55,664 nucleotides of DNA, from IMG/VR virus record IMGVR_UViG_3300019999_000002, positions 1 to 55,664 of that record, one strand, 5' to 3'. The notes under the pieces are model-generated. The model did no database searches. It had not been told where the DNA came from and saw only the letters and a list, made by a program, of their open reading frames with translations. The stretch comes from a virus. Taxonomy: Duplodnaviria > Caudoviricetes. A program made the translations under genes and the position numbers. Numbering within the stretch: position 1 is the stretch's first letter; each line of letters opens with the position of its first letter. Positions 747-52,825 of this stretch are shown in pieces.

Positions 747-1519
747 GCTTGTCGCCCGATGCCAGTTGGCTGCACCCGCCGAACTTCCTTCAAGCGATGG
801 AAGGCGGCGCTGGCTTGGCCCTCAAAGCTCGTGCTACCGATCTGGAGGAACGATCTACCGCCGACCGGCTCCAGCTTGCCTACGACCAATTGGCACAGAA
901 CGAGCGGCATCAGGCGATGGCTTTGCAGCAGCAATTAGAACTCAAAAAGGAAGCTGATGATCTGCGTCGGCAGGATTTACTGGAACAAAAGGATTATCAC
1001 GAATCCACGATTGACAGATACGCCAACGATTTAGGAGAGAGGACAAGGCACAATACAGCGATGGAGGGTAAAAACGTGCTCGCCGGTCCTGAGATAGTTA
1101 CTGGGCCGGACGGCAAGCAATACGTGAAAGTCTCTCCGAATACCTTTCGGCCTGTTACTCACCCGATGGAAACGCTCAAATACGACGAAACCATTCCGGG
1201 GACTCCAGAGATTCCAGAGAAGCGGGAAGGCGGATTCCTTGGATTTGGTTCGCATGTCGTTTCCGCCGCCGTCCCTGAGATTCCATCAAGGGTTGTACAT
1301 CACACGCGACGGGTTCCAGTCGGTGAGGATTTAGGAGCGAGTGATTTGCTTACCCAACCTTCCGCCGGCATATCTCCATTCACCGAAGGCCAAACCGTTC
1401 GCAATAAAAAGACCGGCGCTGTAGCCGTATGGCGCGGCGGGCGATTGGTTCCATTATCCGGCGCATCCGAGCAATCGGATGCCATTGACGAAACCGATTC
1501 TGGCGAGGAAGATCAATGA
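743..1519 (+). CDS. Probable internal virion/ejection protein
   Basis: ATGA overlap with the upstream stop (MSLSPDASW...). Coiled-coil N-half; C-terminal 'FTEGQTVRNKKTG...WRGG' motif of a kind seen at the ends of ejection proteins. Confidence 0.55.
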   Translation: MSLSPDASWLHPPNFLQAMEGGAGLALKARATDLEERSTADRLQLAYDQLAQNERHQAMALQQQLELKKEADDLRRQDLLEQKDYHESTIDRYANDLGERTRHNTAMEGKNVLAGPEIVTGPDGKQYVKVSPNTFRPVTHPMETLKYDETIPGTPEIPEKREGGFLGFGSHVVSAAVPEIPSRVVHHTRRVPVGEDLGASDLLTQPSAGISPFTEGQTVRNKKTGAVAVWRGGRLVPLSGASEQSDAIDETDSGEEDQ

Positions 1520-1520
1520 C

Positions 1521-4500
1521 ATGCCAGTGGACCTATCGGATTGGGAACCAGTAGCAGCGCCGAGCAAATCAAAAGCTGATTTTTCAGATTGGGAACCAGT
1601 TCCCGATACCGCAGGACCCTTCGAGCCATCGGGCGTCATTGACAAAACAAAACAGACCCTCCCCAGTCTCGAAATTCCAGAGTGGCAGACGCGCGAGATG
1701 ACACTGCATCCAACGGTGATGCCCGATGTCAAGCCTGCGCTAAATTTATACCAGCAGCTTACCAAACCTTTAGCCGAGACTAGGCAACAGGTATTCGAGC
1801 CGTTACGAGAAATGGAAGGCATCAAGCCGCAACCGGAATGGATGCAGGTTCCCGAACCCCCAAGGCAGCCAAGCACAGGGTTGGAAAAGGGCGAGGACAT
1901 TTTAGAAGGTGTCCTGAAAACAGGATCATCATTTGCCGATTTCTTCACTTCCCCTTTGGGCGTTGGAACATTGGGAATCGGCTCATTGCCTGCCGCACTT
2001 CAAAAAGTTGTCGCTCTCGGTTTCGCCACGACGATGGCCAAAGAAGTCCCGCATATCGCAACCGAACTTGGAACAGAACTCGGAAAGCCAAAAGAGGAAC
2101 AAGACCTGGCCAGGATTTCCGAGTTGGTGAGTCAGGCTGTTGCCAACACGGGCTTTGCCGCATTGGGTGCGGCACATGGCGCAGGCCGTCCACTCGCTGA
2201 AAAGTTGGGGGCTTATCCCGCAACCGATATTTCGGAACCCGCAGCAACTCAACCTCCAGACTTCAACCAAGGAGAACCAAATGCCAATCCGCAGCCAAGC
2301 CCAGTGGAGATACCTCGCAATCCACCACCCGAACCTGCTGCACAAGTGGCAGCAAGAGAGCCCGGTGCTGTTCAACAGCCTGCCGAAGCACCACCCAAAG
2401 GAGAAGATCAGGGCGAAACTCAAAGCCAAGCGCCGGAAGAAGTAGCTTCTCCAATTGCAGATAACCTCTATGTAACTGACGATCTGAGTCTCAGAAACGC
2501 TCCGGTTAAACTCTCCGACGTAATTGGTGTAAAAAAAACCACCAACGATTCTGTACAAACCGTTTACGCAATCCGATACCGCTTTCTGGAACGAGATGGT
2601 AAGCTATCAGAAGGACTGGCCTACAGTGATGATCCGGTTTGGGAACTGCATGAAAAGTTCGGAAAGGGGTTTGGAGAGACAAAATCAACAGAAAAAGCAG
2701 CGGCTCAACCATCCCCGCCAGTTGAGGCAAGTCCTGCCGCAGCAACTCCTGCCCAAGAGCAAGGTCCGGGGATTGTGGGGAATCCTGACATCACAACCGG
2801 GGCATTGGGCAAGAAAGGAATGGGCGCAGCGAATTACAGCGAGGTTGAAGGCCAAGGCGATCCTGATATTTACGGCGTAGCGGAACGTGTCAGGGAACAA
2901 CGTGCCAAGGCCGGTCAGACCATTCCCATTGACCCCGGCAAAGGTGTGAGCGCACTTGAAGCCGTGGTTCACGGCCAGGACTTATTGGCCAAAGACCCCA
3001 ATTCGGCGAGAGTTGCGGTTGATGAATTCTCAAAGAATAAGGCCATCTCGTTTGACGGAATGGCCGCTACCCGAGCAATGGGAGAAAAAGCTTTTCGTGA
3101 TGCGCGACGAATCGAAGAAAAGTTCGGCACGGATTCGCCCGAATACAAAGCCGCGTTCCTGGATGCTGTCCAGTGGGACAAAGCCAGCAAAGAGATGCAG
3201 ACCGAGTGGCACAAGCAAGGCCGAGCGCAACAGGGCCAAACCGACATAGACACCGGCTCATTCACCGGACTCCAAAGAGCGTTCAAGTCAGACACCGAAA
3301 AAGATTTTACCCCCAATCAGGCAGGCACAGCCAAGAAAAAGGCTTCCAAGGTCAAGCAGGCTTCCGATGCTGCGACCGAAGCCAAAGGAAAACTATTAGA
3401 TCATCTCGACAAAGAATCCAAGGGGACGGATGCGGAGAAACGCGCTCTCGACGCCGCAAATAAAACCGTTCGAGAAAACGCCATTCGGATTGCTGAACTG
3501 GAAAATAAAGTCCGCATTGCCCGCACAGTCCGGGAAGGTGAGATAGCCAGGATTCAACTTGAGCGCGAGAACGTCAATCAGCGGGCCGCGCAACAGGGGG
3601 CCCGATCAGCCGCGGTTAAGCTGGCCGAAGCTGAAAACAAGAAGCGTATTGCAGAATCTTCTCGCAAGGCTCTGGACGATCAGGTTAAGGCCACACAGAA
3701 GGCTTTGGATTCCGCTCGCAAGGTAGCCACGGACGCAGCAACCAAGTTGGCCGATGCTGAGACAAAACAGCGTGTCTCAAAATCCTCCTCGGATCGAAAG
3801 GCTGCGAATGCTGAACGTCTTAAAATCCAAAAGGTTCTCGACGCCGCAAATAAACAAGTGAGAGACGCCGCAGTTGCTCTTGCAAAGGCTGAACGCGATG
3901 CCAGAGCCAACCCCGAACAAGCCGTTTGGAAAAAGGTCCGGGAGTATCTCGACAAAGGCGAGGATGATTTTGACGAAATCCGAAACAAGGTCGCTACCGA
4001 CCTGGGGATGAAGGTTGAGAAAGTCACCCGCCTTTTGAACGAAACAAAGCGTGCAAAGTTTTTGGCCGATGACGTTTGGCGCAAGCAGCAAACCGAACGC
4101 CGAATGAAGGAAGATGCGAAACGATGGCTGACAAGTATTGAAACGCCATTCTACCACAAGGCGCTTGCCAACATTCCAAAGATTTTGTTTGGGTTGAAAG
4201 TCGGTTTTCACGGCACGGTTGCGCTCGGCACTCACGCCCCAATGGTAGCTTTCCAGCCCCGCTTTTGGAACAGCTACATTCGGGACTTCGGCAAAATGTA
4301 TCGGATGGTCAATCCAAAGGGCGGGAAGGCTTATTACGAAATGCAGGTCCAGGATCTGCTTCGCCGAAAGAATTATGTCACTGCTCGCCGTGCCGGCCTG
4401 GTAAACGATCCGTTCGTTTTCGAGGATTACAACAGCCCCGACACAGCCAAATATTTCGGGGGATTAACCGGCATGGGAAACCGCGGCTATTCCGTTCTCA

Positions 4501-5402
4501 AGATTCTCCGTCAGGACATGTTCGATCAGCACTGGAACAAACTGCCTAAGACTTCACAAATTCCAGAAGTCGCCGCCGCAATCGCAGACGGCATCAATCA
4601 CGCAACTGGTGTCGTAAAAGGAAAAGCTCCAAGCGGGGCCAACATCGCCCTGTTTGCCCCCCGGCTCGAAGCCTCTCGCGCAATGTGGCTGTTAGGCGAT
4701 CCGATTCGTGCCGCCGATACCTTCATCAATTGGAAGGATTCATCTCTTGGTGAGAAGCAATTCGCTATAAATCAGGTCAAAGAAAAGGCGTGGGTTGCTG
4801 GAACATTTTTTGGATTGCTCGCTCTCAACCAGGGTTTTCTTTCTGCAACCGGCAGCAATCAGAAGGTCAATATGACCGACCCAATGAAAAGCGATTTTAT
4901 GAAATTCAAAGTCGCCGGAATGCAGGTCTCCTACGGCAATGCCATGCTCTCGATGGCTCGTCTCCCATTACGCCTCTGGGTTGGGATAAAAAACGAAGGG
5001 AAACTCAACAAGATCATCTACGAGGATGAAAATACCGCCAAGACCCTGTTCGATTATGCCCGCAGTCAATCCAGCCCATTCATGGGTTTAATCCTGGACC
5101 TCGCTTTCGGCAGGGACTTTCAGGGGCGCCCGCTGCCGCGCGCTGGCTTCGGATTACTTCCAGCAAGAACCGCGATGCCCAAACGATTACGGGCTCTCGG
5201 AGCAAAACCTTATACCTGGCCGGAGTACGCCGCCGAAACGCTCTCTATGATCCCCGTTTCCGAAGCCTTGAAAGAAGTCTGGGGCAAAGGCATGGGCATG
5301 AGTGATGAGCAGATGAGGCACGCGCTAAAGGCTCTTGCTGAAATTTCCTTCATCGGAGGAACTGGAGGCAGGCTCACAGACGACATTCAGCCAAAACCAT
5401 AA
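1521..5402 (+). CDS. Large (~1290 aa) probable internal virion/DNA-ejection protein
   Basis: Longest ORF and last of the tail/ejection operon. Doubled SDWEPV at the N-terminus, Pro/Ala/Glu linker, Ala/Lys coiled coil with (A/V)LD(A/S)A(N/R)K repeats. No catalytic motif recognised. Confidence 0.6.
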   Translation: MPVDLSDWEPVAAPSKSKADFSDWEPVPDTAGPFEPSGVIDKTKQTLPSLEIPEWQTREMTLHPTVMPDVKPALNLYQQLTKPLAETRQQVFEPLREMEGIKPQPEWMQVPEPPRQPSTGLEKGEDILEGVLKTGSSFADFFTSPLGVGTLGIGSLPAALQKVVALGFATTMAKEVPHIATELGTELGKPKEEQDLARISELVSQAVANTGFAALGAAHGAGRPLAEKLGAYPATDISEPAATQPPDFNQGEPNANPQPSPVEIPRNPPPEPAAQVAAREPGAVQQPAEAPPKGEDQGETQSQAPEEVASPIADNLYVTDDLSLRNAPVKLSDVIGVKKTTNDSVQTVYAIRYRFLERDGKLSEGLAYSDDPVWELHEKFGKGFGETKSTEKAAAQPSPPVEASPAAATPAQEQGPGIVGNPDITTGALGKKGMGAANYSEVEGQGDPDIYGVAERVREQRAKAGQTIPIDPGKGVSALEAVVHGQDLLAKDPNSARVAVDEFSKNKAISFDGMAATRAMGEKAFRDARRIEEKFGTDSPEYKAAFLDAVQWDKASKEMQTEWHKQGRAQQGQTDIDTGSFTGLQRAFKSDTEKDFTPNQAGTAKKKASKVKQASDAATEAKGKLLDHLDKESKGTDAEKRALDAANKTVRENAIRIAELENKVRIARTVREGEIARIQLERENVNQRAAQQGARSAAVKLAEAENKKRIAESSRKALDDQVKATQKALDSARKVATDAATKLADAETKQRVSKSSSDRKAANAERLKIQKVLDAANKQVRDAAVALAKAERDARANPEQAVWKKVREYLDKGEDDFDEIRNKVATDLGMKVEKVTRLLNETKRAKFLADDVWRKQQTERRMKEDAKRWLTSIETPFYHKALANIPKILFGLKVGFHGTVALGTHAPMVAFQPRFWNSYIRDFGKMYRMVNPKGGKAYYEMQVQDLLRRKNYVTARRAGLVNDPFVFEDYNSPDTAKYFGGLTGMGNRGYSVLKILRQDMFDQHWNKLPKTSQIPEVAAAIADGINHATGVVKGKAPSGANIALFAPRLEASRAMWLLGDPIRAADTFINWKDSSLGEKQFAINQVKEKAWVAGTFFGLLALNQGFLSATGSNQKVNMTDPMKSDFMKFKVAGMQVSYGNAMLSMARLPLRLWVGIKNEGKLNKIIYEDENTAKTLFDYARSQSSPFMGLILDLAFGRDFQGRPLPRAGFGLLPARTAMPKRLRALGAKPYTWPEYAAETLSMIPVSEALKEVWGKGMGMSDEQMRHALKALAEISFIGGTGGRLTDDIQPKP

Positions 5403-5629: not shown

Positions 5630-5709
5630 GGAGCCTATAGCTCAACGGACAGAGCGCAGGGAGAACGCCTCTCTGCGGTCATCGGTTCAACTCCGACACG
5701 GCTCCACCA
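5630..5709 (+). ncRNA. tRNA-like element without a canonical anticodon loop (pseudo-tRNA)
   Basis: GGAGCC/GGCTCC + A + CCA. D-arm TA-GCTC-AACGGACA-GAGC; T-arm TCGG-TTCAACT-CCGA. The central arm is an 8-bp stem GCAGGGAG/CTCTCTGC with a 5-nt loop. Confidence 0.7.
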
Positions 5710-5866
5710 ATTCCATAGATTCCTGCCCCTCCTGTGGCTACCCTCCCTCCGATTGCACCTGCCACCCTCAATGGATGGCCTCCCTTTGCTCCGTAACAAG
5801 TCCCGCTAGAACCGCCGCAACTACCCGGGCGCGGTTGAGCGGAGCAGCCAATTTGCACCATTCAAA

Positions 5867-6712
5867 ATGCCCTATTCAGATCCAGAAATAGGCAGACAGA
5901 GGAAGCGGTTGTGGTTAAAAAATAACGCCGCAAAGGCCGCTCAATATGCCAGGAATTTCCGTCAAAGGCACAGGGATAGAATCAATAAAGAGGCTTACGA
6001 CAAGATACTCGCCACAAGACCTCCCAAACCAGAAAAATGCACCGCTTGTGACTCGAATCGAATTAGATGGTCCAATGGTGCCTGGGAATGCGCGGATTGC
6101 TGCCGTATATCCGCCGAAAAGAGATCGGTTGAGAGAAATAGGATTGAGCAGATAAACGAACGTTACCAATGCCTTATCCCTCTTTACGGACAGAAAGCAG
6201 CCGATATTTACCGAGGTCACGCCATAAAGCATCCTTACAAGCTCAGATATGGCCCACAAACCATCCACCGGCTCTGTCTGCCACGAGACTACCAGAAACT
6301 CTCAGAAGCCAATCTGGAACGTATTTATACTCTCAACGTCCTTCTCAAACTTCCATTCGGAAACATAGGCTGGACGTGTCAGAAATGCGGTGTTTATTCC
6401 GGAGAGTTCGCCTTCTTCGACATAGATCATATATCTCCAAGACTTAAAGGCGGTCACGGCAAAAAAGATAACCTCCAAGTTCTGTGCCCGAACTGCCACC
6501 GAAAGAAAACCTTGCTGGACGTTTTTAATCGAACAATTTGCCACACCGAATTACTTTCAATACATACACCGGAGCCTCGCGCTACCTACCCCGCTCCCAC
6601 GGTTAGACCCCTGTCCCATACGTCACGGGAACCGTCGCAACAACACCCTATAAGTGGCCAGAATCATGTACCGCCACGACCGCCCTCTGTGTCCCTAGAA
6701 GCCATAGCCTGA
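5867..6712 (+). CDS. HNH endonuclease with zinc-ribbon motifs
   Basis: CQKCG...DIDHISPRLKGG...NLQVLCPNCHRKKT. Additional CxxC pairs in the N-terminal part. Confidence 0.85.
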   Translation: MPYSDPEIGRQRKRLWLKNNAAKAAQYARNFRQRHRDRINKEAYDKILATRPPKPEKCTACDSNRIRWSNGAWECADCCRISAEKRSVERNRIEQINERYQCLIPLYGQKAADIYRGHAIKHPYKLRYGPQTIHRLCLPRDYQKLSEANLERIYTLNVLLKLPFGNIGWTCQKCGVYSGEFAFFDIDHISPRLKGGHGKKDNLQVLCPNCHRKKTLLDVFNRTICHTELLSIHTPEPRATYPAPTVRPLSHTSREPSQQHPISGQNHVPPRPPSVSLEAIA

Positions 6713-19064: not shown

Positions 19065-19548
19065 TGAATTGATCTTCGTTGTTAATCAAGATGACGTTGG
19101 GAGGGAGTGAGCGAGCCAAAGCCCCCGTAAAGGGGCAAGGATTAACGCCGGTCGGTCGGTCGCTTCGCTTTTTCTTAGTCTTTGGCACATCTTTCCCATC
19201 GGAAGCCGCACAGCTTAACGCGCTGTCACTAAGAGCCTGTTGAGCGTGATGCAATAAGAGCCAGCTCAACTTCTTTAAGACGGTCGGGTCATTCTCAGCC
19301 GTCCATGTTTGATATTCCCGTTTCCTGTATCCGCCTTTGCGGAGCTTCCGAAGAAGCCGGGGAACCACGGTAGCCATACCCTCAAAAAAAGAAGGTGCTC
19401 GGTTTGAAAGAGGCTGGAGATCGCTGTAGAAGCCTGCTCCAAACGGAGCACCGAGCACGGAAATTAACTTACCATAGCGATCTCGCAGCGTCCAGCTTTC
19501 AAACTGGCCGACTACACCAACACTTTTACACCCTCGGGCCGCTTTCAT
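19051..19548 (-). CDS. Hypothetical protein
   Basis: Packed ORF with a basic low-complexity C-terminus. Confidence 0.4.
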   Translation of the reverse strand: MKAARGCKSVGVVGQFESWTLRDRYGKLISVLGAPFGAGFYSDLQPLSNRAPSFFEGMATVVPRLLRKLRKGGYRKREYQTWTAENDPTVLKKLSWLLLHHAQQALSDSALSCAASDGKDVPKTKKKRSDRPTGVNPCPFTGALARSLPPNVILINNEDQFNGHN

Positions 19549-19565
19549 GCAAACACTTTCGTAAT

Positions 19566-19868
19566 TTATTTTTTCTGGTAAATCCCTCTGCTAACTCGTG
19601 TAATCTCGCCTTTTTTTACAAACCTGTGAAGTATTGAGGCAACTCGCTGGCGAAAAACCATTTTCCCAAATGCTTCAATCGGGTCCATGACGGTTTGGAC
19701 ATTATCCTTTTGGCGATAGCAAGGGTTACACCGCTTTCCAGAGAACGGGCTTATCGGATTTCCGCAGTCAGCGCATAGCGATGGATAGCCTTTAGAGATG
19801 AGATCATCGCAGGACAAATTGCCCGTTGAAAACAGGTTCCAGAGAAGTATTTCGCGGCCTCTTGTCAT
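19566..19868 (-). CDS. Zinc-finger plus winged-helix-like protein
   Basis: CADCG...RCNPC; LHRFVKKGEITRVSRGIY. Confidence 0.6.
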   Translation of the reverse strand: MTRGREILLWNLFSTGNLSCDDLISKGYPSLCADCGNPISPFSGKRCNPCYRQKDNVQTVMDPIEAFGKMVFRQRVASILHRFVKKGEITRVSRGIYQKK

Positions 19869-20013
19869 TTTGTTTTAAACACCCTCCTAACCGCGCTGCA
19901 AATCGCGCCCCAGGCCGTGCCAGCGAATAGCAGCAACGCCACGAGGCCGAGCATGAACATGCCCGCGCCTTCCAACTCGCCCCGGTTGGCCTCGGATTCG
20001 GGGTCTGAATCGT

Positions 20014-20262
20014 TCATATCGGATGGTGTCCTTCCAGTTTTCCAATGCGCTCTTTCTTCTCTATGAACTCCCGCATCAATTTCAAAATGTCCGCCTGCTG
20101 GCCGTTGGCGACGTAGTTCATGCGCCCCGGAGCATCGTTGAAAGGAAAAGCCATAATGAAGAAGCCCCAGCCCTGCGGCAGTTCCTCGTCCACGAGGCGG
20201 CCAAGCTTCTGCATTTGGTCGCGGGTCCATGCGTCTTTGCCGTCTTCGGGTTTGATGTCCAT
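20014..20262 (-). CDS. Conserved phage hypothetical protein
   Basis: GWGFFIMAFPF...MNYVAN...DILKLMREFI. Confidence 0.65.
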   Translation of the reverse strand: MDIKPEDGKDAWTRDQMQKLGRLVDEELPQGWGFFIMAFPFNDAPGRMNYVANGQQADILKLMREFIEKKERIGKLEGHHPI

Positions 20263-20264
20263 TG

Positions 20265-20558
20265 TCAGCTCCAGAATCGGCCTGCCCGCAGAACAGAGTT
20301 TGTCCGTATCGAGCCGACAACGTGTTCGGTCACGATGCGAACCTCAACTTCCACCTTGCCGGTCAGAAGAATCCGCAGGCGGTCGGTGAAGGATAGAACG
20401 CTCTTGCTCTTGGTTACGATGCAATCCTGGAATGACGGCGGCGCTTCGGGTACGTGGCAGATGACGAATGGAAAGAGTTTGGATCTCAATCGGTCTCGCC
20501 AAGTCCAAGTACAAGGCTGGTCAGGCGCACAGCAGTTATCGGTTTCAGTCGTTTTCAT
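20265..20558 (-). CDS. Hypothetical protein
   Basis: LSFTDRLRILLTGKV motif; packed ORF. Confidence 0.6.
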   Translation of the reverse strand: MKTTETDNCCAPDQPCTWTWRDRLRSKLFPFVICHVPEAPPSFQDCIVTKSKSVLSFTDRLRILLTGKVEVEVRIVTEHVVGSIRTNSVLRAGRFWS

Positions 20559-20727
20559 GGTTTGTAATCCACTGGGTCAACGTCCTCTTTTTGCAATTGG
20601 TCCTCGATTCGAGCGATGGTCCGCTCGTAGCTGTTGGCCAGCCTCACCTGGTCCCGGTTCCGTGCCTTGCCCATCTCGGCTTGTAGCCGGTGCCATTCGG
20701 CGCACAGCGTTTTCTTTTGGGCTTCGG

Positions 20728-21318
20728 TCATAGGCTTTTACTTTCTATCGCGGCGCGGATTGATTGCTCCCATCGCATCCTTGGGGCTACGGCTTGATTG
20801 GTTCTGCCTTTGCGCGGTCGGTTTCCCCATCCAGTCCATCCACGGGCTCGGGGTTTGAAATTTTCAGCATGTTTCCATCCAGCCGCCTTGTAAATTGTTC
20901 CTGAGTGCGCGGATAAATCCTGATAGGAAATCAGCCGATTTACTTCCGAGAATCGTTTGAGAATGTCCCGGCGCATCCATCCAAGCATTCGGCTCGCGGT
21001 GAACTTGGGAGAATCATCACAAATTGCGAACCGACGCAACTCTAGCCACTCCCTTTGCGGCAGAAGCCGCGCAACCGGATTTGACCATGTAGCAACCGCG
21101 TAGATGAGGTTGCCGCACTCGGCCAGATAGCACACTCGGAAGTGGCTGTTTCCGATTTTAGGAAGCCGCGAATGCCATCGGGTGTTCAGCGCCCTGAACA
21201 CGGACTCATTGCACGCTGAGAATCGAAGTTGGAGCGCAGAGGTCGGAGTTGAACCGCCATATTCCGCTTGGAAAAGCGGACACCCTACCCTTGGATCATC
21301 TGCGCAAAATTCATTCAC
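20728..21318 (-). CDS. Mom-like (GNAT-fold) DNA base-modification enzyme
   Basis: WHSRLP, AVATWSNPVAR, LELRRFAI, ASRML, LISYQD...HSGTIYKAAGW match Mom/XF1762-type proteins. The GTG start overlaps the upstream TGA. Confidence 0.85.
   Translation of the reverse strand: MNEFCADDPRVGCPLFQAEYGGSTPTSALQLRFSACNESVFRALNTRWHSRLPKIGNSHFRVCYLAECGNLIYAVATWSNPVARLLPQREWLELRRFAICDDSPKFTASRMLGWMRRDILKRFSEVNRLISYQDLSAHSGTIYKAAGWKHAENFKPRARGWTGWGNRPRKGRTNQAVAPRMRWEQSIRAAIESKSL
21230..21305 (-). tRNA. tRNA-Gly(UCC)-like element embedded in-frame in the mom-like CDS (non-canonical)
   Basis: GCGCAGA/TCTGCGC + T + CCA; D-arm ATCC-AAGGGTA-GGGT; TCCGC-TTTTCCAA-GCGGA; T-arm GGCGG-TTCAACT-CCG(A)CC. Confidence 0.85.
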
Positions 21319-22000
21319 CGTTCGCCCTTCTTCCTTCTGGCCTTGGTTCTCACCGACGCGCGACCGGCGAGAAAGGCTTGTTTGAGTCGGACTTCACTCA
21401 ATGCCCATGACGGGTCTGGAACATCTCTCAGCGCGAGGTAATTCGAGCACACACATCCGACCGGGCTATCAATCCACTTCTCGAACGCTTTGGCGGCACT
21501 CATTTCGGCTCCTTATTTGGAAAGGTTTGCTCAAAACTTTTTCCGGTAGTGATCTTCAATGCGAAGCAGTAAAGAATCGCCATCACCAACCCGCGAGGCA
21601 TCACGCTACCCCGTTTATTCCATGCGTTGACTTCCTCGCGGGCGATCTTCCAAACGTCGTAGCGGGGATTTTTCACGCGCATCCTTTCCCCGAGCCAAGT
21701 GACCAGCGAGCGATGAACCACACCGCAGCGATGCAGATTGCGGCCAGCATCACGCGGAGAAGCAGGAGGATGATGGACCCGAGGATCATCGCTCTGGCCC
21801 CTCGTTGTCATCGCTGTCACACGCACGGCATAGTCCCATGCGAATCTCCGAACCGCGCAGCAGCTTGTCGCAACGCTCGCAACGGGCTTCCTCTGGCCCG
21901 TTCACTTGGTCCAAGGTTACGCCAGGTGGTAAATTGTAACCAGCCGGGGGCGGGAGTCGGGTCGGGTCGCTCATTTTCGTTTGATTGGTTTACTGCGTGA

Positions 22001-22282
22001 TTAACCCGCCGTTGGAGCCAGCAGCACTTCTTTGGACTTTTTCTTTCTCGTGGCTCCGTTTGCTGTGCGAGCCTTTGGCCGGCTGCTGCCTTTGGTCGTC
22101 AGCACGTCAACGATCTTCTCTGAGTTAGAGAGGATTGCGTCGAGGATTGCAGCCACACTGGCAGGCGTGATGCTGGACAGTGGCTCTTGCAGGATGAGCG
22201 CGACTTCCTCTTTCTGCGCCTCGGCGATGCTGCCGAAGATTTTACCGTTGCTGCTCTGGAATGACTGCGTTTTGACTATCAC
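22001..22282 (-). CDS. Hypothetical protein
   Basis: FQSSNGKIFGSIAEA; GAAAGGA upstream. Confidence 0.6.
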   Translation of the reverse strand: MIVKTQSFQSSNGKIFGSIAEAQKEEVALILQEPLSSITPASVAAILDAILSNSEKIVDVLTTKGSSRPKARTANGATRKKKSKEVLLAPTAG

Positions 22283-22321
22283 TGTTTTCCTTTCGTTTGA
22301 GTTGTGGTTTGTGTGAGGGGG

Positions 22322-23050
22322 TTAGACATCAATCGCAGTTGGATAACGACCGGCCCTGACCCCGGCCTTGACGATCGGCGTGGCTATAACCCCTTTTGGC
22401 GTGACGCCCATTTTAAGCAGGTTCTTAATCTCGCCCATCAAAGGTTCAAGCTTCACACAATTGGAATGGCACCGATAGAGCAGGTGAACATCTTGGACGA
22501 CCACATCCCAGTCGTTCGTGATCCTCTGGCCTTCGGCTCGGACCGGCTCGGGCGGTGGCGCAACCGCAGCAGCAATGGCGCTGAAATGTTCCGCAACCTC
22601 ATCGAGCTGTTCGTGGGTTTGGGCCTGGGCCATTGCTGTGGCCCTGTCCCGTTCTATTTGTAGCAATTCCTGATTGCGAGCCTGTTCGGCAGCGCGGACC
22701 TTGGCTTGCTCCAAAGCAGCAAAATCCCCAGTCATCTGCGACACCCTCGTTATCGCGGTCTTGAGATGCTCGATGAATATCTTAGCTGCCTCATCAATTT
22801 TCCGACCGTACTCCAGCACGGGCTCCTTGCAAGCCTTGCGCGATTTCTCGGTTAGGCTGATAGCCGTCTGGAGCGCGGTCTGTGCCTGGACCGCAATTTG
22901 GTTTTCCTCTGGCGTGGTCACTTGTTCGACAGCATCGGCCAGGGCCAATGCGTCGGCCTTCATGGTCTTGGCCTCGGCTGTGAATGTGATGGTTAACTTG
23001 GTGTCGTTGCGCACCATCAAAGTTTTATCCTTCAATTTCTCGATATTCAT
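22322..23050 (-). CDS. Coiled-coil protein, Gp157/Gam-like
   Basis: Long Ala/Glu helices, EKSRKACKEP...IDEAAK, C-terminal PKGV; next to SSB. Confidence 0.55.
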   Translation of the reverse strand: MNIEKLKDKTLMVRNDTKLTITFTAEAKTMKADALALADAVEQVTTPEENQIAVQAQTALQTAISLTEKSRKACKEPVLEYGRKIDEAAKIFIEHLKTAITRVSQMTGDFAALEQAKVRAAEQARNQELLQIERDRATAMAQAQTHEQLDEVAEHFSAIAAAVAPPPEPVRAEGQRITNDWDVVVQDVHLLYRCHSNCVKLEPLMGEIKNLLKMGVTPKGVIATPIVKAGVRAGRYPTAIDV

Positions 23051-45085: not shown

Positions 45086-47458
45086 TTACTTTCCGACTGG
45101 ATCGGGCTCTGGCTTCGGCTTGGCGGCTGATTTTCGTTCTTCCATCTCCAGCTTGGTTTCTTCCTCCGTGGCGGGAACCATTCCGGCCTGTGCCTCCATC
45201 TGACGTTTGATAGACGGTGGCGCGTCCTTATAGGAAATGCTTTCGCTTGGAGAATGCTGGTTCAGATTGTCTCGCTGAATTTGCGCGTGAGTGGCGGCAT
45301 CCTTCCTGCGCTGGTCCAAGACGAAACCCTTTTCCTTCTCCGCCTGAGTTTGCTTTGCCTTCTCCGCAGCCAAATCCATTTTCATCTTGCCCATCATGTG
45401 AGTTGTCGAGGCTTTCGCTATCGCGTTCGGGTCCGGTTGGCCTTCCCCGTTCATGTTCTGTTGCTGCGCGTGTTCCTGGCCGCGTTGGGAGAGCCCTTTG
45501 ACCTGATTCATCAGCTTCCCGAGAGAATCTGAATACTGCTTCACCCGTTGTTTCTCCTGGGGGTTCTGAGCCAGCCGTTGCACGAGTTGTTCAAGGTAAT
45601 TGTTGACCTCGACCAATCCCGAAGCCTCATCTGGAGTTGCCATGTTGTCCCGATTTTCGAGCAGCACGATCTTCCCAGCAAATAGCGGCAGCATCGCCTC
45701 AATCTGATCTATCACCGACAAACCTTCCTTTATTGGCACCGGCACGCCCTGAATGAGCGTTCCAAAGACGTACTGCGAATCGCGCTGGCCATCGGTCACG
45801 CCGCGATCCTTGCCCAACGGAGCCCAGCGAGCGGCTTTGCGGGGGTCTTTGGTGATAACGAGTAATCGTTCATGCAGAATCTCGCGTTGCGCGGTCGGGT
45901 CACATTCGGGAGAAATTTCTCCAAGTTGTTGTGCCTCCGCTGTCGCCATTGTCGGATTTCCCATGCCAAGTGGAGTCACGGCTTCCACCCTCCAAAATTT
46001 GGGGTTCATTTGGCTTACTGGAATACCGGCATCCTTGCACAATTTCTGAAATTCTTTCACGTCCTCGTTCTGAGAATTTGGGCGGCAAAATCTTCGGCAT
46101 TTCTCTATGTAATCCTGATTCTCGTAAATAAACGCCCTACTCAAAAGGCCCGTCATCATCGCATTGACCTGTTGCAACTTCACTGAAGTCTCGAAAGCCG
46201 TCTGTTCCCGGCTGGTGCCGTTATCAATGCTTTGGGTGTAGCTACTCGAAGCTTCCTGTTGCAACTGTTTTAGCTGCGCCATTGCGGTTTCGACCAAGCG
46301 CCCGTCAATCTGATGCCTCTCGGTTTGGGGTATCACCGACACGCCGGTTTTGAGCACGCTGAAATTTGCGAACTCCTGGAGTTGCGCCCGAGCCTTGTCT
46401 ATCGGATCAGTGATGCGCAACCAGGGATTGAAATTGTCGAAGATGTGCTGCAAAAGTTTGCACCGTGCCAGATTTGTGTAGAAACACGGCTCCAATAGCG
46501 CGTAGCCCAGCGAGCGAATCGAATAGACGTGGAAAGGAGCTTTGGCGCTCAAATCGCCGAACTGACATTGCAGGATATGTTCTCGCTTTTTGGCAATCGG
46601 CTTTTCGGAAGTCCAAAGAAACTCATCCGGATCACCCCCATGAACCGCGCCCGTCTCAGGGAGAATCCGCATGAAAAAACCTTCATTATCCTTCTTCGTA
46701 TCATCCTTGAAGTAGAAGTGATAGAGCGGGATGCTTGGCATCGAATCTCCGGTAAAAAATCCTCCGTCCTCCCTCACGATCTCGGCAATCTTTTCGACAT
46801 CGGTTTCGAGATTGTAAGTCCTCCCATTGGAATCAAAATTCAGCTCCTTATAGTTCTTTAGGATTTCGGCTACCTTCTTTTTGCTCCAATGGTTATTCGG
46901 TTTGTCGCTAAATGCTTCTTTCAAAAGCTCTCCTGGCGTATAGGCGTGTCGAGCGCAAAACCAGTCCATCTGCTTGAAGCTGGTAAGCGTATTAGTCGGC
47001 ACTCGGAAATCTTCTACAGCCAAATAATCCCCACACCAATCATCTTCATTTCGATAAAGAGTAGGGCCAATCCCATGGCTGACTACACTCGCCCATTTCG
47101 AGTTATGCAAATCGTAGTATTCGAGTGATTCCCGCATGAACCGATTGATATTCTCCGTGATGAACGTCTCCCACTCACTTTGATGCTCTGCAGGAGCGAA
47201 TGGGAGTTTAACTCGGAAGAAATTATTGTTCCCCCAAAACGCGGTCATGTATTGGCGGCGAGCTTGGGAAATGAGGGTCAACAGTTCTCCCCAGTTGACA
47301 TTGATCTTTAATCCCTGTTTTTTGGCTTCTTCCTCTTTGAGCGGAGGATAACAGTTGATGGCGTTATTCACCTTCAAGCGGTTTTCCGCGCGGGATCGCG
47401 CAACACTGTCGCCCATTCGGATAGTGCTAAGAATTCGTTCAGGCGTGCTAAAATTCAT
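45086..47458 (-). CDS. Portal protein
   Basis: 790 aa downstream of terL. Helical, TAFETSVKLQQ motif, Gln-rich barrel-like tail and SESISYKDAPP C-terminal motif as in P22-like portals. Confidence 0.75.
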   Translation of the reverse strand: MNFSTPERILSTIRMGDSVARSRAENRLKVNNAINCYPPLKEEEAKKQGLKINVNWGELLTLISQARRQYMTAFWGNNNFFRVKLPFAPAEHQSEWETFITENINRFMRESLEYYDLHNSKWASVVSHGIGPTLYRNEDDWCGDYLAVEDFRVPTNTLTSFKQMDWFCARHAYTPGELLKEAFSDKPNNHWSKKKVAEILKNYKELNFDSNGRTYNLETDVEKIAEIVREDGGFFTGDSMPSIPLYHFYFKDDTKKDNEGFFMRILPETGAVHGGDPDEFLWTSEKPIAKKREHILQCQFGDLSAKAPFHVYSIRSLGYALLEPCFYTNLARCKLLQHIFDNFNPWLRITDPIDKARAQLQEFANFSVLKTGVSVIPQTERHQIDGRLVETAMAQLKQLQQEASSSYTQSIDNGTSREQTAFETSVKLQQVNAMMTGLLSRAFIYENQDYIEKCRRFCRPNSQNEDVKEFQKLCKDAGIPVSQMNPKFWRVEAVTPLGMGNPTMATAEAQQLGEISPECDPTAQREILHERLLVITKDPRKAARWAPLGKDRGVTDGQRDSQYVFGTLIQGVPVPIKEGLSVIDQIEAMLPLFAGKIVLLENRDNMATPDEASGLVEVNNYLEQLVQRLAQNPQEKQRVKQYSDSLGKLMNQVKGLSQRGQEHAQQQNMNGEGQPDPNAIAKASTTHMMGKMKMDLAAEKAKQTQAEKEKGFVLDQRRKDAATHAQIQRDNLNQHSPSESISYKDAPPSIKRQMEAQAGMVPATEEETKLEMEERKSAAKPKPEPDPVGK

Positions 47459-50069: not shown

Positions 50070-50855
50070 ATGTCCCCTACTCCTTGTGTTCCCTGTTGTT
50101 CGTCCCCTCAGATTACCGATATTCCTGGCATGGATGGGGAAGATGGATCTAATGGGTCACCTGGAGCAGCCGGAGCAGCCGGAGCAGCCGCCTTCACAAC
50201 TACCACAGCCGATTTCAATGTTCCTGCGGCTAAGGGCGGAACGGTCACAATATCCGTGGTGGACACATCTCAGATGGCAACCGGGCAAACTGTAGTGGCA
50301 GATGGCCCCGCCACTTTCTCGGTCACAACTATTGTTGGACCAACTAGCGTTACTTTAACGTGGCTGCAAGCTCCATCGGATGTTGCCGCCGGCGCGGCAA
50401 TTACTTCGGGCGCTACAGTGTCACCTTCCGGACCGTACCCGGCCCTGTTTGATTCAACAGTGAGCTACGGCACGGGAGGGCCTCAGGCGATGACGATAAC
50501 ATCATCTCAAATTCTTAGCGTAAGCGTGGTGATTCCCCGAACGGGAAAGTATCTTTTGTTTGCCAGAGTCCTGTGCAACTATGCCGCAGCCACATTTGCA
50601 GCGGTAAAGACGCTTACGTTCAAAGTCCGCCGGACCAATAACACGGCAGCGGACATTTCCAATGCGGCAACTACGGCAAAGATGCAGGTCATCACGACCG
50701 AGACATATACGGTTCCAATGCAACCGATTCCAACCGTGCTCTATTCCGCCACCGCTGGCGATATTTTGCAGATTTATGGAAGTCTGGAAACCGCCCCTGG
50801 CGCCGGCGCAGTCAACGCGCAAGAGGCTGAATTGCTCGCTCAACAAATCTCCTAG
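50070..50855 (+). CDS. Virion fibre/collar-like protein with a short collagen-like segment
   Basis: PCVPCC, G-X-Y run (GMDGEDGSNGSPGAAGAAG), AFTTTTADFNVPA module, beta-rich C-terminal domain. Confidence 0.65.
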   Translation: MSPTPCVPCCSSPQITDIPGMDGEDGSNGSPGAAGAAGAAAFTTTTADFNVPAAKGGTVTISVVDTSQMATGQTVVADGPATFSVTTIVGPTSVTLTWLQAPSDVAAGAAITSGATVSPSGPYPALFDSTVSYGTGGPQAMTITSSQILSVSVVIPRTGKYLLFARVLCNYAAATFAAVKTLTFKVRRTNNTAADISNAATTAKMQVITTETYTVPMQPIPTVLYSATAGDILQIYGSLETAPGAGAVNAQEAELLAQQIS

Positions 50856-52825
50856 TGGCCACTGATTTTAAGAGTCGGGAGCTTTACGACGCACTTGAAG
50901 ATTTCGATGGTGGCGTAAATGAGAATCGCTCGCCGCTAAAACTGCCGCGTAATGTAATGGCGCGGGCAACCAACGTCACCGTACGCGGCGACTTTGCCAC
51001 ACACCGGCCCCCAGTTAAAAAAGTAGCCACTCTCCCCGCTTCAACCATACAAGGAAAGTATCAGGGGGGATGTTACTACAAGCCAGATAATGCTGGCGGA
51101 TCACTTTGCTTCTCCTTGGCTGGAAATTTCGTAAAGTTTTACTTCAATGCCGGAGTTCCTACTTTCAATTTATTCTTTGGAACCAGTCAGGATGCAAACG
51201 CCGATCAACATTGGATGTGGCAATCTGAGAAATGGGTGATTTGGAATGATGGAATAAATTCTCCTGTTTTTTTCAATAACACCTTGGTTTTTAGGGATGC
51301 CGTAGTTCCTCCTGCCAGCTTTTCAACTACCAACACAGCCGACTTTCTAATTCCTGCGGTCGGGGCTTCCGTCGTGGCCGTGTTCGCCGCTGTTGCCAGT
51401 TTGAATATTGGAGACGTGGTTTCTATAAAGAATCAAGGAACCATGCAGGTGCTGGATATAACCGGATTGAATGTCACCCTGTTGAACATTGCCGCCACTC
51501 CAGAGGGTTTTAACGTTGTGTCTGCAACGGTGATTTCTTGGACTCACATTACTCGTGTTTTGCCTCCAGGAAGAATGGGCGCTTACGGGATGGGTAGGAA
51601 TTGGGTGTGCCTGCCAGATGGAAAACAGTTCATCGCCTCGGATATTGTTGGCGGCAGCAGTGGAAGCGTTGCTGAGAATTATCGTGATGCAGTATTAAAA
51701 GTTACCGAGAACCTTTATTTGTCTGGTGGGGGAAATTTTACCGTTCCCGGAAGTATAGGATCAATTCAGTCAATGGCGTTTTCCGCGACTCTCGACTCAT
51801 CATTGGGGCAAGGCCCGTTGCAGGTGTTTACTGATACGCACGTTTTTTCCTGCAATGCCCCAGTTGAACGAACGAAATGGCAGGACATTAACAACCCCAT
51901 TCTTACTGAATCCCTGATTTCTAATGGGGCCAAAGGGCAGAACTCAACCGTGCTCGCCAACGGAGATATTATTTTTCGTTCGATTGATGGGATACGTTCG
52001 CTGATATTGGCCCGACGAGAGTTTGACACTTGGGGGAACACTCCAATTTCAATTGAGGTTGATCCGATTCTCAGGGCTGATGATCCGGGACTGCTGCGAT
52101 TTGGCAGCGCCATCGTGTTCGACAACCGGCTATTGATGACGACTCATCCTGTCAAAGTTGCTTTTGGTGTTTATCACACCGGAATTATACCGCTCAATTT
52201 TGACCCGGTATCTTCACTGCGCGGCAAACTTCCGAGCGTTTATGATGCGGGTATCTGGACGGGGCTAAACGTGCTCCAATTGATTGTGGGCGATTTTGAT
52301 GGTGTGGAGCGTGCCTTTGCCATCGTCCTGAATACGTCCAATGAAATTGAGATTTGGGAGATTCTCAAGGATGGAAACCATGACGAGACAAACACCCCGA
52401 TTGTCTGGGATTTCGCTTCTGCATCGTTAAAGTTCGGTCAAGACGACCCGAGACAACGCGATTTGCTTCGACTGCAAGACGGGGAAATCTATGTGGATAA
52501 ATTGGTCGGAACAGTTCGGTTTGAAGCTTTTTACAAGCCCGATCAATATCCCTGCTGGGTGTCTTGGTTCTCGTGGACCGAATGCCAAACATCGGACGCA
52601 AGTGATTCAAAGCCTGGATTTAGGCCGCGCATGGGCTTGGGAGAACCCAGCGGTTATCCATGTGATGAAAATGTGAACCGGCCATTGCGCGAGTGTTACA
52701 CGATGCAGTTTCGTCTGGTTGTGCGAGGCCATTGCCGATTTCTTGGTGCCCGATTCAAGGCTTCAACTATCCCTCAGCCAGAATTTGCTCCCCAACAATG
52801 TGCTACCATCTGTGAACAAACATGA
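50855..52825 (+). CDS. Probable tail nozzle / tail tubular protein B-like
   Basis: DFDGGVN...P..LP.N...ATNV N-terminus; beta-rich 656 aa; position in the tail operon. Confidence 0.65.
   Translation: MATDFKSRELYDALEDFDGGVNENRSPLKLPRNVMARATNVTVRGDFATHRPPVKKVATLPASTIQGKYQGGCYYKPDNAGGSLCFSLAGNFVKFYFNAGVPTFNLFFGTSQDANADQHWMWQSEKWVIWNDGINSPVFFNNTLVFRDAVVPPASFSTTNTADFLIPAVGASVVAVFAAVASLNIGDVVSIKNQGTMQVLDITGLNVTLLNIAATPEGFNVVSATVISWTHITRVLPPGRMGAYGMGRNWVCLPDGKQFIASDIVGGSSGSVAENYRDAVLKVTENLYLSGGGNFTVPGSIGSIQSMAFSATLDSSLGQGPLQVFTDTHVFSCNAPVERTKWQDINNPILTESLISNGAKGQNSTVLANGDIIFRSIDGIRSLILARREFDTWGNTPISIEVDPILRADDPGLLRFGSAIVFDNRLLMTTHPVKVAFGVYHTGIIPLNFDPVSSLRGKLPSVYDAGIWTGLNVLQLIVGDFDGVERAFAIVLNTSNEIEIWEILKDGNHDETNTPIVWDFASASLKFGQDDPRQRDLLRLQDGEIYVDKLVGTVRFEAFYKPDQYPCWVSWFSWTECQTSDASDSKPGFRPRMGLGEPSGYPCDENVNRPLRECYTMQFRLVVRGHCRFLGARFKASTIPQPEFAPQQCATICEQT

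Follow-up and report, generated by a model that had tools for sequence, protein, structure and literature searches.

The subject of this analysis is a stretch of viral DNA (Duplodnaviria; Caudoviricetes) of 55,664 nucleotides (nt), hereafter the window, which is the complete 55.7-kb IMG/VR virus record IMGVR_UViG_3300019999_000002 and is matched in soil DNA runs. On its minus strand lies a gene of the Mom family of DNA-modification enzymes, and 26 of its first codons are at the same time a tRNA-Gly-like cloverleaf that ends in an encoded CCA. This observation, which goes back to a first-pass annotation of the window, is confirmed here, and comparison with related viral loci demonstrates that the fold is conserved and covaries, that the reading frame continues through it and that the RNA is linked to Mom genes at either of their ends. 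We suggest that, on balance, the embedded RNA probably serves the Mom enzyme as a released, glycylated private carrier which avoids translation; the interpretation given in the first-pass annotation is thus partly supported.

A tRNA-like cloverleaf inside a Mom reading frame

The minus strand from 21305 to 21230 reads as it had originally been parsed, with a perfect 7-bp acceptor stem and an encoded CCA. The D stem is ATCC/GGGT, the anticodon stem (TCCGC/GCGGA) closes an 8-nt loop TTTTCCAA, the variable region measures 4 nt, and a canonical T loop is carried by the T stem GGCGG/CCG-A-CC, which contains a single bulged A; all 21 of the 21 pairs form in the window. The 18-nt anticodon arm also admits another reading, in which a 6-bp stem closes a loop of 6 nt. 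The element departs from a standard tRNA in two respects, as its anticodon loop does not measure 7 nt and the 5 bp of its T stem are interrupted. Because the anticodon loop is irregular, ARAGORN labels 21234-21306(-) as 'tRNA-???' with a two-base anticodon. The Rfam tRNA model RF00005 gives the element a marginal 30.0 bits against a gathering score of 29, with an expectation value (E) of 3.5e-4 on 701 nt and 6.7e-6 per genome, and the minimum-free-energy structure of the single sequence keeps the acceptor stem and not the cloverleaf (z = -2.34, with 3 of 200 shuffles folding as well). The argument that the fold is more than chance is therefore carried by its homologues, not by the window on its own. 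The element holds G1-C72, C2-G71, U73, C35 and C36, the identity set of bacterial glycyl-tRNA synthetase (GlyRS), by which it may be charged. The first-pass annotation had named these same positions, which proved to be conserved, and had added G3-C70, a pair that a review assigns to the yeast and archaeal sets, not to those of E. coli and Thermus (PMC9976931).

The same bases are codons 5-30 of a Mom-like open reading frame (ORF; Pfam PF25680, phrog_1384), and its GTG start (21318-21316) overlaps the TGA of the upstream ORF (21317-21315) as GTGA, in agreement with the coupling described at first pass. Near the N-terminus, the motif PLF...G..P.S..L recurs in 108 of the 121 proteins compared, after a search in which the best 120 of 708 homologues are listed, and P14, L15, F16, P25, S27, L29, L31 and F33 are invariant across 30 aligned homologues. 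Among the 55 fold-bearing rows of the nucleotide alignment introduced below, an in-frame start, mostly ATG, is situated 4-16 nt upstream of tRNA nt 1 in 43 and 19-61 nt upstream in nine, and the remaining three (viral loci L054, L058 and L074) have an upstream stop and an ATG within the D loop. The part of the RNA downstream of each row's start is free of in-frame stops in all 55, and internal length changes are confined to two rows: L021, whose anticodon loop is 3 nt longer, and L074, with 1 extra nt upstream of its ATG. A conserved start position 3' of the RNA was looked for in the same 55 rows, and none was found. The hydrophobic alternation of strand β1 (L29-x-L31-x-F33) begins in the CCA codons, the strand in the AlphaFold model spanning residues 32-36, and residues 1-22 of that model have a predicted local distance difference test score (pLDDT) below 50. 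We conclude that, as far as sequence can tell, the segment encoding the tRNA-like fold is translated, residues 5-30 forming a disordered N-terminal tail. This agrees with the original placement of the tRNA inside the translated frame, which is kept and has no conserved start after the RNA. A chance fold or a pseudo-tRNA lying beside the gene was considered as well, and is ruled out by β1 beginning in the CCA codons and by the lack of a conserved later start.

Some relatives show unusual arrangements at this end of the gene. In L058 (2953-3044) and L074 (2953-3044) a mini-ORF begins at or just before tRNA nt 1, with an in-frame stop upstream of the Mom start, and in L058 the stop of the mini-ORF overlaps the D-loop ATG of the Mom frame as TAATG. 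One protein of 174 amino acids (aa; P0105) starts near the T arm, its N-terminus retaining no more of the RNA-encoded segment than the 3' half specifies, and is apparently a 5' deletion variant.

Conservation of the fold and its linkage to Mom genes

Alignment A2 was made with MAFFT from 67 distinct sequences (the window and 66 viral loci), with decayed sequences included and no fitting to the structure. Its 55 fold-bearing rows include L020, in which the T arm is broken, so the whole cloverleaf is counted in 54 of the 67 sequences; 46 have it in the register of the window, and in eight the D and anticodon stems are displaced by one base, a shift of register that creates a canonical 7-nt loop. 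Across A2, 85.0% of cells pair, compared with 38-49% when the partners are slid, and there are 225 double-sided changes, compared with 51-66 in slid and 76 ± 7.5 in shuffled alignments; none of 500 shuffles reached the observed values. Compensatory change is seen at 18 of the 21 pairs, and the covariation that the first-pass annotation had proposed to look for in homologues is therefore present. Pairs 1-72, 2-71 and 3-70 are GC, CG and GC in 54-55 of the 67 rows, and the next two vary widely (4-69: GC 35, CG 24; 5-68: CG 25, AU 13, UA 10, GC 6). A second set of 51 further distinct 76-mers, cut by a fixed offset without alignment, pairs at 86.8% in the acceptor stem (33-51% slid), 70.1% in the D stem (31-50%) and 74.5% in the anticodon stem (40-52%), and its anticodon is NCC where the register holds.

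The positions that matter for glycine identity are conserved. The anticodon U34, C35, C36 is present in all 55 fold-bearing rows and U73 in 54, and the extra loop base varies freely; the encoded CCA is kept as TCCA or ACCA in 44 rows and wholly absent in the other 11, an all-or-none pattern as in real tRNA genes. The conserved pattern, made up of the first three acceptor pairs, U73, C35 and C36, matches the bacterial glycine identity set, which consists of G1-C72, C2-G71, U73, C35 and C36 (PMC9976931). The T-stem bulge occurs in 55/55 rows (A in 54, G in one), most of them with the 8-nt loop, and variants at the adjoining pairs 50-64 (GC 47, AU 9) and 51-63 (CG 48, with UA, AU and GC variants) mean that compensatory changes flank the bulge on both sides. 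The tertiary pair 18/55 also covaries, with G18/U55 seen in 39 rows, A18/G55 in 10 and mixed combinations in 6. Of the core nucleotides, A14 is present in 50 of the 55 rows, G19 in 51, T54 in 52, C56 in 52 and A58 in 54, against 43 for U8, 41 for G18 and 43 for U55; the T loop reads TGC, with U55 replaced by G, in 11/55. Mean third-position entropy, counted without L021 and L074 because of their indels, is 1.01 bits over codons 5-30 versus 1.66 bits over the core, and F16, which supplies C35, is always TTC in fold-bearing rows (entropy 0), several decayed sequences using TTT.

Covariance model R1 was built from alignment A3, which holds 44 of the 54 cloverleaf rows in the register of the window; L021 and L074 were omitted, and the eight register-shifted rows were kept out to be used as test cases. 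R1 scores the window element at 92.1 bits and, in 64 of the 80 sources searched, recovers the element where the Mom gene begins, the left-out test sequences included at E ≤ 2.4e-10; it has no match in Mu or in 15 decayed loci, and no second copy at other positions was found in L001-L079, the placement at the 3' side of Mom genes having come to light only in the DNA-pattern scan described below. From A2, RNAalifold rebuilt 11 pairs, which belong to incomplete acceptor, D and anticodon stems, and the bulged T stem was not recovered. The compensatory changes, the constrained synonymous sites and the shared bulge argue together against drift and against copies of host tRNAs, and we conclude from these comparisons that the tRNA-like fold is under selection at the RNA level and is not a product of chance. 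In a tree built on the Mom core, with the RNA-encoded part excluded, the 12 decayed sequences are scattered over four or more separate positions between fold-bearing ones, which indicates that the fold came first and disappeared repeatedly; the branch to Mu Mom, used as root, is very long, and the rooting is uncertain.

To look at the linkage from the side of the RNA, viral contigs were scanned for the DNA pattern of the T arm and acceptor alone, which gave at least 80 loci, and Mom domains in these were sought with hidden Markov models excluding the RNA-encoded peptide. Among the 80 loci listed, a Mom domain starts on the same strand within 60 nt after the RNA in 67 and 61-300 nt after it in two, and ends within 60 nt before the RNA in five (L095, L101, L107, L125, L151), so that the RNA adjoins a Mom domain in 74 of the 80 overall. 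The other six have no Mom domain; L083 and L156 are very short and L142 is cut right at the RNA. The scan motif was derived from the element's own family, and the scan is therefore not fully independent. Ten of ten tested ORFs from other Mom subfamilies are full-length Pfam Mom proteins (95-172 bits), and in L158 and L090 the RNA is upstream of a separate Shine-Dalgarno (SD)-ATG start. These loci show, in terms of gene arrangement, that the RNA occurs at either end of Mom genes.

The five loci with the RNA at the 3' side belong to a Mu-like Mom subfamily ('...PYPK' end), in which it lies in or just after a C-terminal extension and has a 6-bp anticodon arm with a 5-6-nt loop holding ACC, CCC or UCC. 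In L131 (about 4268-4343) and L156 the RNA is reduced to its 3' half (T arm, 3' strand of the acceptor, CCA). This remnant follows a ParB-like ORF in loci that lack a Mom domain, perhaps as the scar of a deletion or as a site of recombination. L019 carries two Mom-like paralogues 2 kb apart (2950-3561 and 5641-6345), with a cytosine-methylase-like ORF between them and the tRNA-like fold in the first only, and L044 has an ARAGORN tRNA-Met(cat) at 4057-4130, approximately 500 nt downstream of its Mom gene, with an R1 score of 41 bits. A tblastn search of cultured phages returned only Mom-like genes of Paenibacillus and Staphylococcus phages, with 32-38% identity over the core and the N-terminal part in none, and a search of a genome collection gave one locus only (L081), on a contig of a metagenome-assembled genome.

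The Mom enzyme and its genomic context

Assignment of the 196-aa product to the Mom family is supported at several levels. Pfam Mom (PF25680) matches residues 69-163 only, with 41.8 bits (cut-off 27.1), phrog_1384 'Mom-like' matches at 2.3e-17, and a profile search of the PDB gives a sole match, 8bv8 (Mu Mom), which is also the top Foldseek match of the AlphaFold model (mean pLDDT 70.4; E 1.3e-7, template modelling score 0.52). The two proteins share the GNAT fold and Pfam family, and have about 26% identity, in the core only. Mu residues R111, S124, D149 and Y159 align with R96, S109, D134 and Y143; of the four residues essential in Mu (R111, S124, D149, R151), the first three thus have counterparts, and R151 aligns with S136 or a gap, close to which an invariant H138 is found. 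The N-terminal tail is disordered in both proteins (PMC13219725).

The glycine donor of Mom was identified only recently, in a preprint of 2023 and a paper of 2026: Mu Mom requires Gly-tRNAGly, whose glycine it places on N6 of adenine in double-stranded DNA. Each of the three E. coli isoacceptors can serve as its donor, and Gly-tRNAAla cannot (Silva et al. 2026, PMC13219725). The donor tentatively named in the first-pass annotation, Gly-tRNAGly, was hence right. According to the discussion of that paper the glycylated 3' end is recognised by Mom, and its main text leaves phage-borne tRNAs unmentioned and regards the burden on host translation as a question still to be settled (PMC13219725). 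By homology, the Mom protein of the window would likewise move glycine from Gly-tRNAGly onto adenine N6. Mu itself (the 8bv8 system) uses host tRNAs and is controlled by Com, and a search of Mu com-mom for a tRNA gave no match.

Coordinates of the element and its immediate neighbours are collected below. The Mom gene is part of a tightly packed minus-strand operon, and no promoter-like or terminator-like site was found on the minus strand between 20300 and 22400. The upstream 62-aa ORF has no family match in Pfam and PHROG searches, and Com-like Cys pairs were not seen in it.

Features of the Mom gene and the embedded tRNA-like element in the window
Feature	Position	Strand	Remarks
Mom-family GNAT gene, 196 aa, GTG start	20728..21318	-	ORF list, Pfam, PHROG, structure search
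tRNA-Gly(UCC)-like cloverleaf, 76 nt including encoded CCA (codons 5-30 of the Mom ORF)	21230..21305	-	tRNA nt 1 at 21305, A76 at 21230
GTG start	21316..21318	-	13 nt upstream of tRNA nt 1
8-nt anticodon loop UUUUCCAA	21268..21275	-	U34 C35 C36 at 21272-21270, within F16 and Q17 codons
Bulged A between T-stem pairs 51-63 and 50-64	21243	-	Rfam alignment
U73 discriminator and encoded CCA (L29 and Q30 codons, CTC CAA)	21230..21233	-	
Upstream 62-aa ORF, translationally coupled to the Mom gene	21315..21503	-	ORF list
Downstream 58-aa ORF, ATG overlaps Mom stop as ATGA	20555..20731	-	ORF list

The contig's own gene call (P0005) is a 157-aa form that starts at V40, i.e. after the tRNA-like segment. 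We think that this call is truncated because pipelines mask predicted tRNAs before gene calling; if they do, the embedded RNA would explain truncated calls of this kind. Elsewhere in the window, a second tRNA-like RNA is found at 5631-5705 (+), in the gap after a 1307-aa ORF (25.7 bits with the Rfam tRNA model, cut-off 29). It ends in A73-CCA, has an 8-bp stem with a 5-nt loop in place of the anticodon arm and has 15 nt of its T arm in common with the Mom element, the A being paired there; R1 does not recover it at E up to 1. The ten largest ORFs of the window (e.g. 1479-5402, 45086-47458, 50855-52825) have no PHROG match at 1e-5 and no Pfam match at 0.01, indicating a phage very distant from described ones.

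Possible roles of the embedded RNA and related systems

The reading that we consider somewhat better than evenly probable is that of a released glycyl carrier. Host RNase P together with 3' trimming (or a CCA-adding enzyme) would cut the RNA from part of the transcripts, host GlyRS would charge it via the intact identity set, and the Mom enzyme would use the charged RNA as its own glycine carrier. Two conserved deformities, the T-stem bulge and the 18-nt anticodon arm, would keep the RNA off EF-Tu and the ribosome, so that DNA modification would not compete with translation; the bulge falls inside the three T-stem pairs (49-65, 50-64 and 51-63) that set EF-Tu affinity (Rietmeyer et al. 2020, PMC7826273). 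Since excision removes the start codon, each transcript would give either enzyme or carrier. More tentatively, with chances that we place a little short of even, enzyme and co-substrate may be encoded in the same 76 nt in such a way that the balance between translation and RNase P cutting sets the enzyme-to-carrier ratio and the carrier is used by this enzyme alone, an arrangement that would recur across several Mom subfamilies and at either end of the gene. On this reading the phage would supply a private aminoacyl-tRNA pool for DNA hypermodification. The element also offers a natural case of a single sequence under both protein-coding and tRNA constraints.

A number of observations weigh against a released carrier. 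Only 3/20 related loci pass the Rfam gathering score, and ARAGORN flags only 23/79 loci (18/60 when counted over 60 loci), five of them as tRNA-Gly; U8 is present in only 43/55 rows. The bulge adjoins pair 50-64, which is read by Thermus GlyRS (PMC9976931), and either it or the unusual anticodon loop could interfere with charging, with RNase P or with the addition of CCA; excision would destroy the mRNA. In at least four lineages the fold decayed while the gene persisted, so it is dispensable there, and P14-L15-F16 and P25 persist in the decayed lineages, which places part of the conservation at the protein level and suggests that the N-terminal tail also matters as protein. On the enzyme side, Mu Mom manages with host tRNAs, and the absence of an aligned Arg for Mu R151, essential in PMC13219725, means that the chemistry may differ from that of Mu Mom. 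The run listing for 19500-23000 of the window consists of three soil DNA runs and no RNA run.

The first-pass annotation had left two routes side by side, a tRNA cut out as a dedicated donor and an autoregulatory decoy. The second of these, a cis-acting tRNA mimic that throttles translation of a potentially toxic enzyme, either unaided or with the enzyme or GlyRS attached to it as in the thrS operator, is in our view unlikely. It would make sense of the start positions, as with the start 4-16 nt upstream in 43/55 rows the 30S footprint must melt the acceptor stem, and of the fact that Mu mom needs tight control by Com, a Com-like protein not having been found in the window in Pfam and PHROG searches. 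However, the RNA is at the 3' end of five Mom genes and precedes a separate SD-ATG in L158 and L090, where no start can be masked, and these positions favour a released RNA over a start-codon operator. Nor would a hairpin-type block need an all-or-none CCA, fixed C35/C36 or 18/55 covariation, and the glycylated 3' end that Mom recognises (PMC13219725) would be absent from an internal mimic. Retention of CCA as a unit in 44/55 rows likewise counts for the released donor over the decoy. Of the two routes, the comparative evidence therefore favours the donor over a decoy acting at the start codon.

Two further readings we hold to be distinctly improbable. The first is that of an ordinary phage tRNA-Gly decoding GGA/GGG, or, given the 8-nt loop, a +1 frameshift suppressor, which merely overlaps the ORF. 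Phages often carry tRNAs, ARAGORN calls tRNA-Gly(tcc) with a 7-nt loop in five relatives, and the T loop, G18/G19 and A58 are largely canonical; however, the bulge is present in 55/55 rows, the 8-nt loop in most and U55 replaced by G in 11/55, and a decoding tRNA need not follow one enzyme family as nearly exclusively as is seen in 74/80 listed loci. The second gives a trans-acting tRNA-like RNA another job, either as an uncharged scaffold or activator, or as a decoy for tRNAGly-attacking defences of the TacT type (GNAT toxins). The fold, the Mom linkage and the presence of a second tRNA-like RNA in the phage at 5631-5705 are all compatible with this, as is the specificity of TacT for U73 and G71 (PMC9976931), yet the fixed C35/C36 points to GlyRS and not to readers of the acceptor end, and a decoy need not travel with Mom. 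Finally, we consider it very improbable that the element is a relic or a site of recombination, the ORF having overprinted either a captured tRNA-Gly gene or an attP core that was copied from tRNA genes of the host, with the RNA now idle: decay of the fold at least four times without gene loss, the 3' halves kept beside a ParB-like ORF in L131 and L156 and the position of the Dehalococcoides locus described below in integrative islands (PMC3146451) would fit it, but compensatory changes, synonymous constraint and a shared non-canonical bulge would not, and no tyrosine integrase (PF00589) was found in the complete 55.7-kb record, a search that did not extend to serine recombinases.

Among the known systems closest to the phage element is one in the ssrA islands of Dehalococcoides, where a conserved 76-bp tRNA-Gly-like locus is situated within the first 150 bp of a Mom homologue, in 16 islands and one deep-sea fosmid (McMurdie et al. 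2011, BMC Genomics 12:287, PMC3146451). The anatomy of a tRNA-Gly-like element embedded in mom homologues is thus already in print since 2011. By its description this locus resembles ours in being tRNA-Gly-like, in its NCC ('DCC') anticodon and in being labelled a pseudo-tRNA by pipelines, and differs in belonging to bacterial integrative islands with a 270-aa Mom beside ParB and serine recombinases, as opposed to a soil phage with a 196-aa Mom. No function was proposed for it in that report (PMC3146451), since the tRNA dependence of Mom was then unknown, and our literature searches, whose scope ended short of supplements and subscription journals, found no paper linking the embedded RNA to this dependence. 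Combining the 2011 locus with the donor of Mom leads to the testable idea that private glycyl carriers serving DNA modification occur in many uncultured phages and islands.

Such a carrier outside translation would, if true, be a viral counterpart of the cell-wall tRNAs of staphylococci. The non-proteogenic (NP) tRNAGly of S. aureus (NP1-NP3, UCC) receive their glycine from the normal GlyRS. Their T stems contain weak pairs and their T loops TGC in place of TTC; they escape EF-Tu, supply FmhB of the FmhB/FemA/FemB system and are thus set aside for glycyl transfer outside the ribosome (Rietmeyer et al. 2020, PMC7826273). Shared with the phage element are the UCC anticodon, alteration of the T-stem pairs that determine EF-Tu binding and the TGC in the T loop, the last in 11/55 rows here. 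In contrast, the staphylococcal tRNAs are free-standing chromosomal genes with weak pairs and not a bulge, and their partition from translation has been shown biochemically, whereas here we infer it.

Folds shaped like a tRNA are carried by other messengers too, as in the thrS operator and in plant viral RNAs, whose tRNA-like ends can be aminoacylated, and tRNA genes of mitochondria may overlap coding genes; processing of an mRNA by RNase P is a further possible parallel. In these cases the tRNA-like part is untranslated or the overlap amounts to a few bases, whereas in the Mom genes a whole tRNA is in frame, and it is located within the coding sequence of an enzyme family that uses that very tRNA species.

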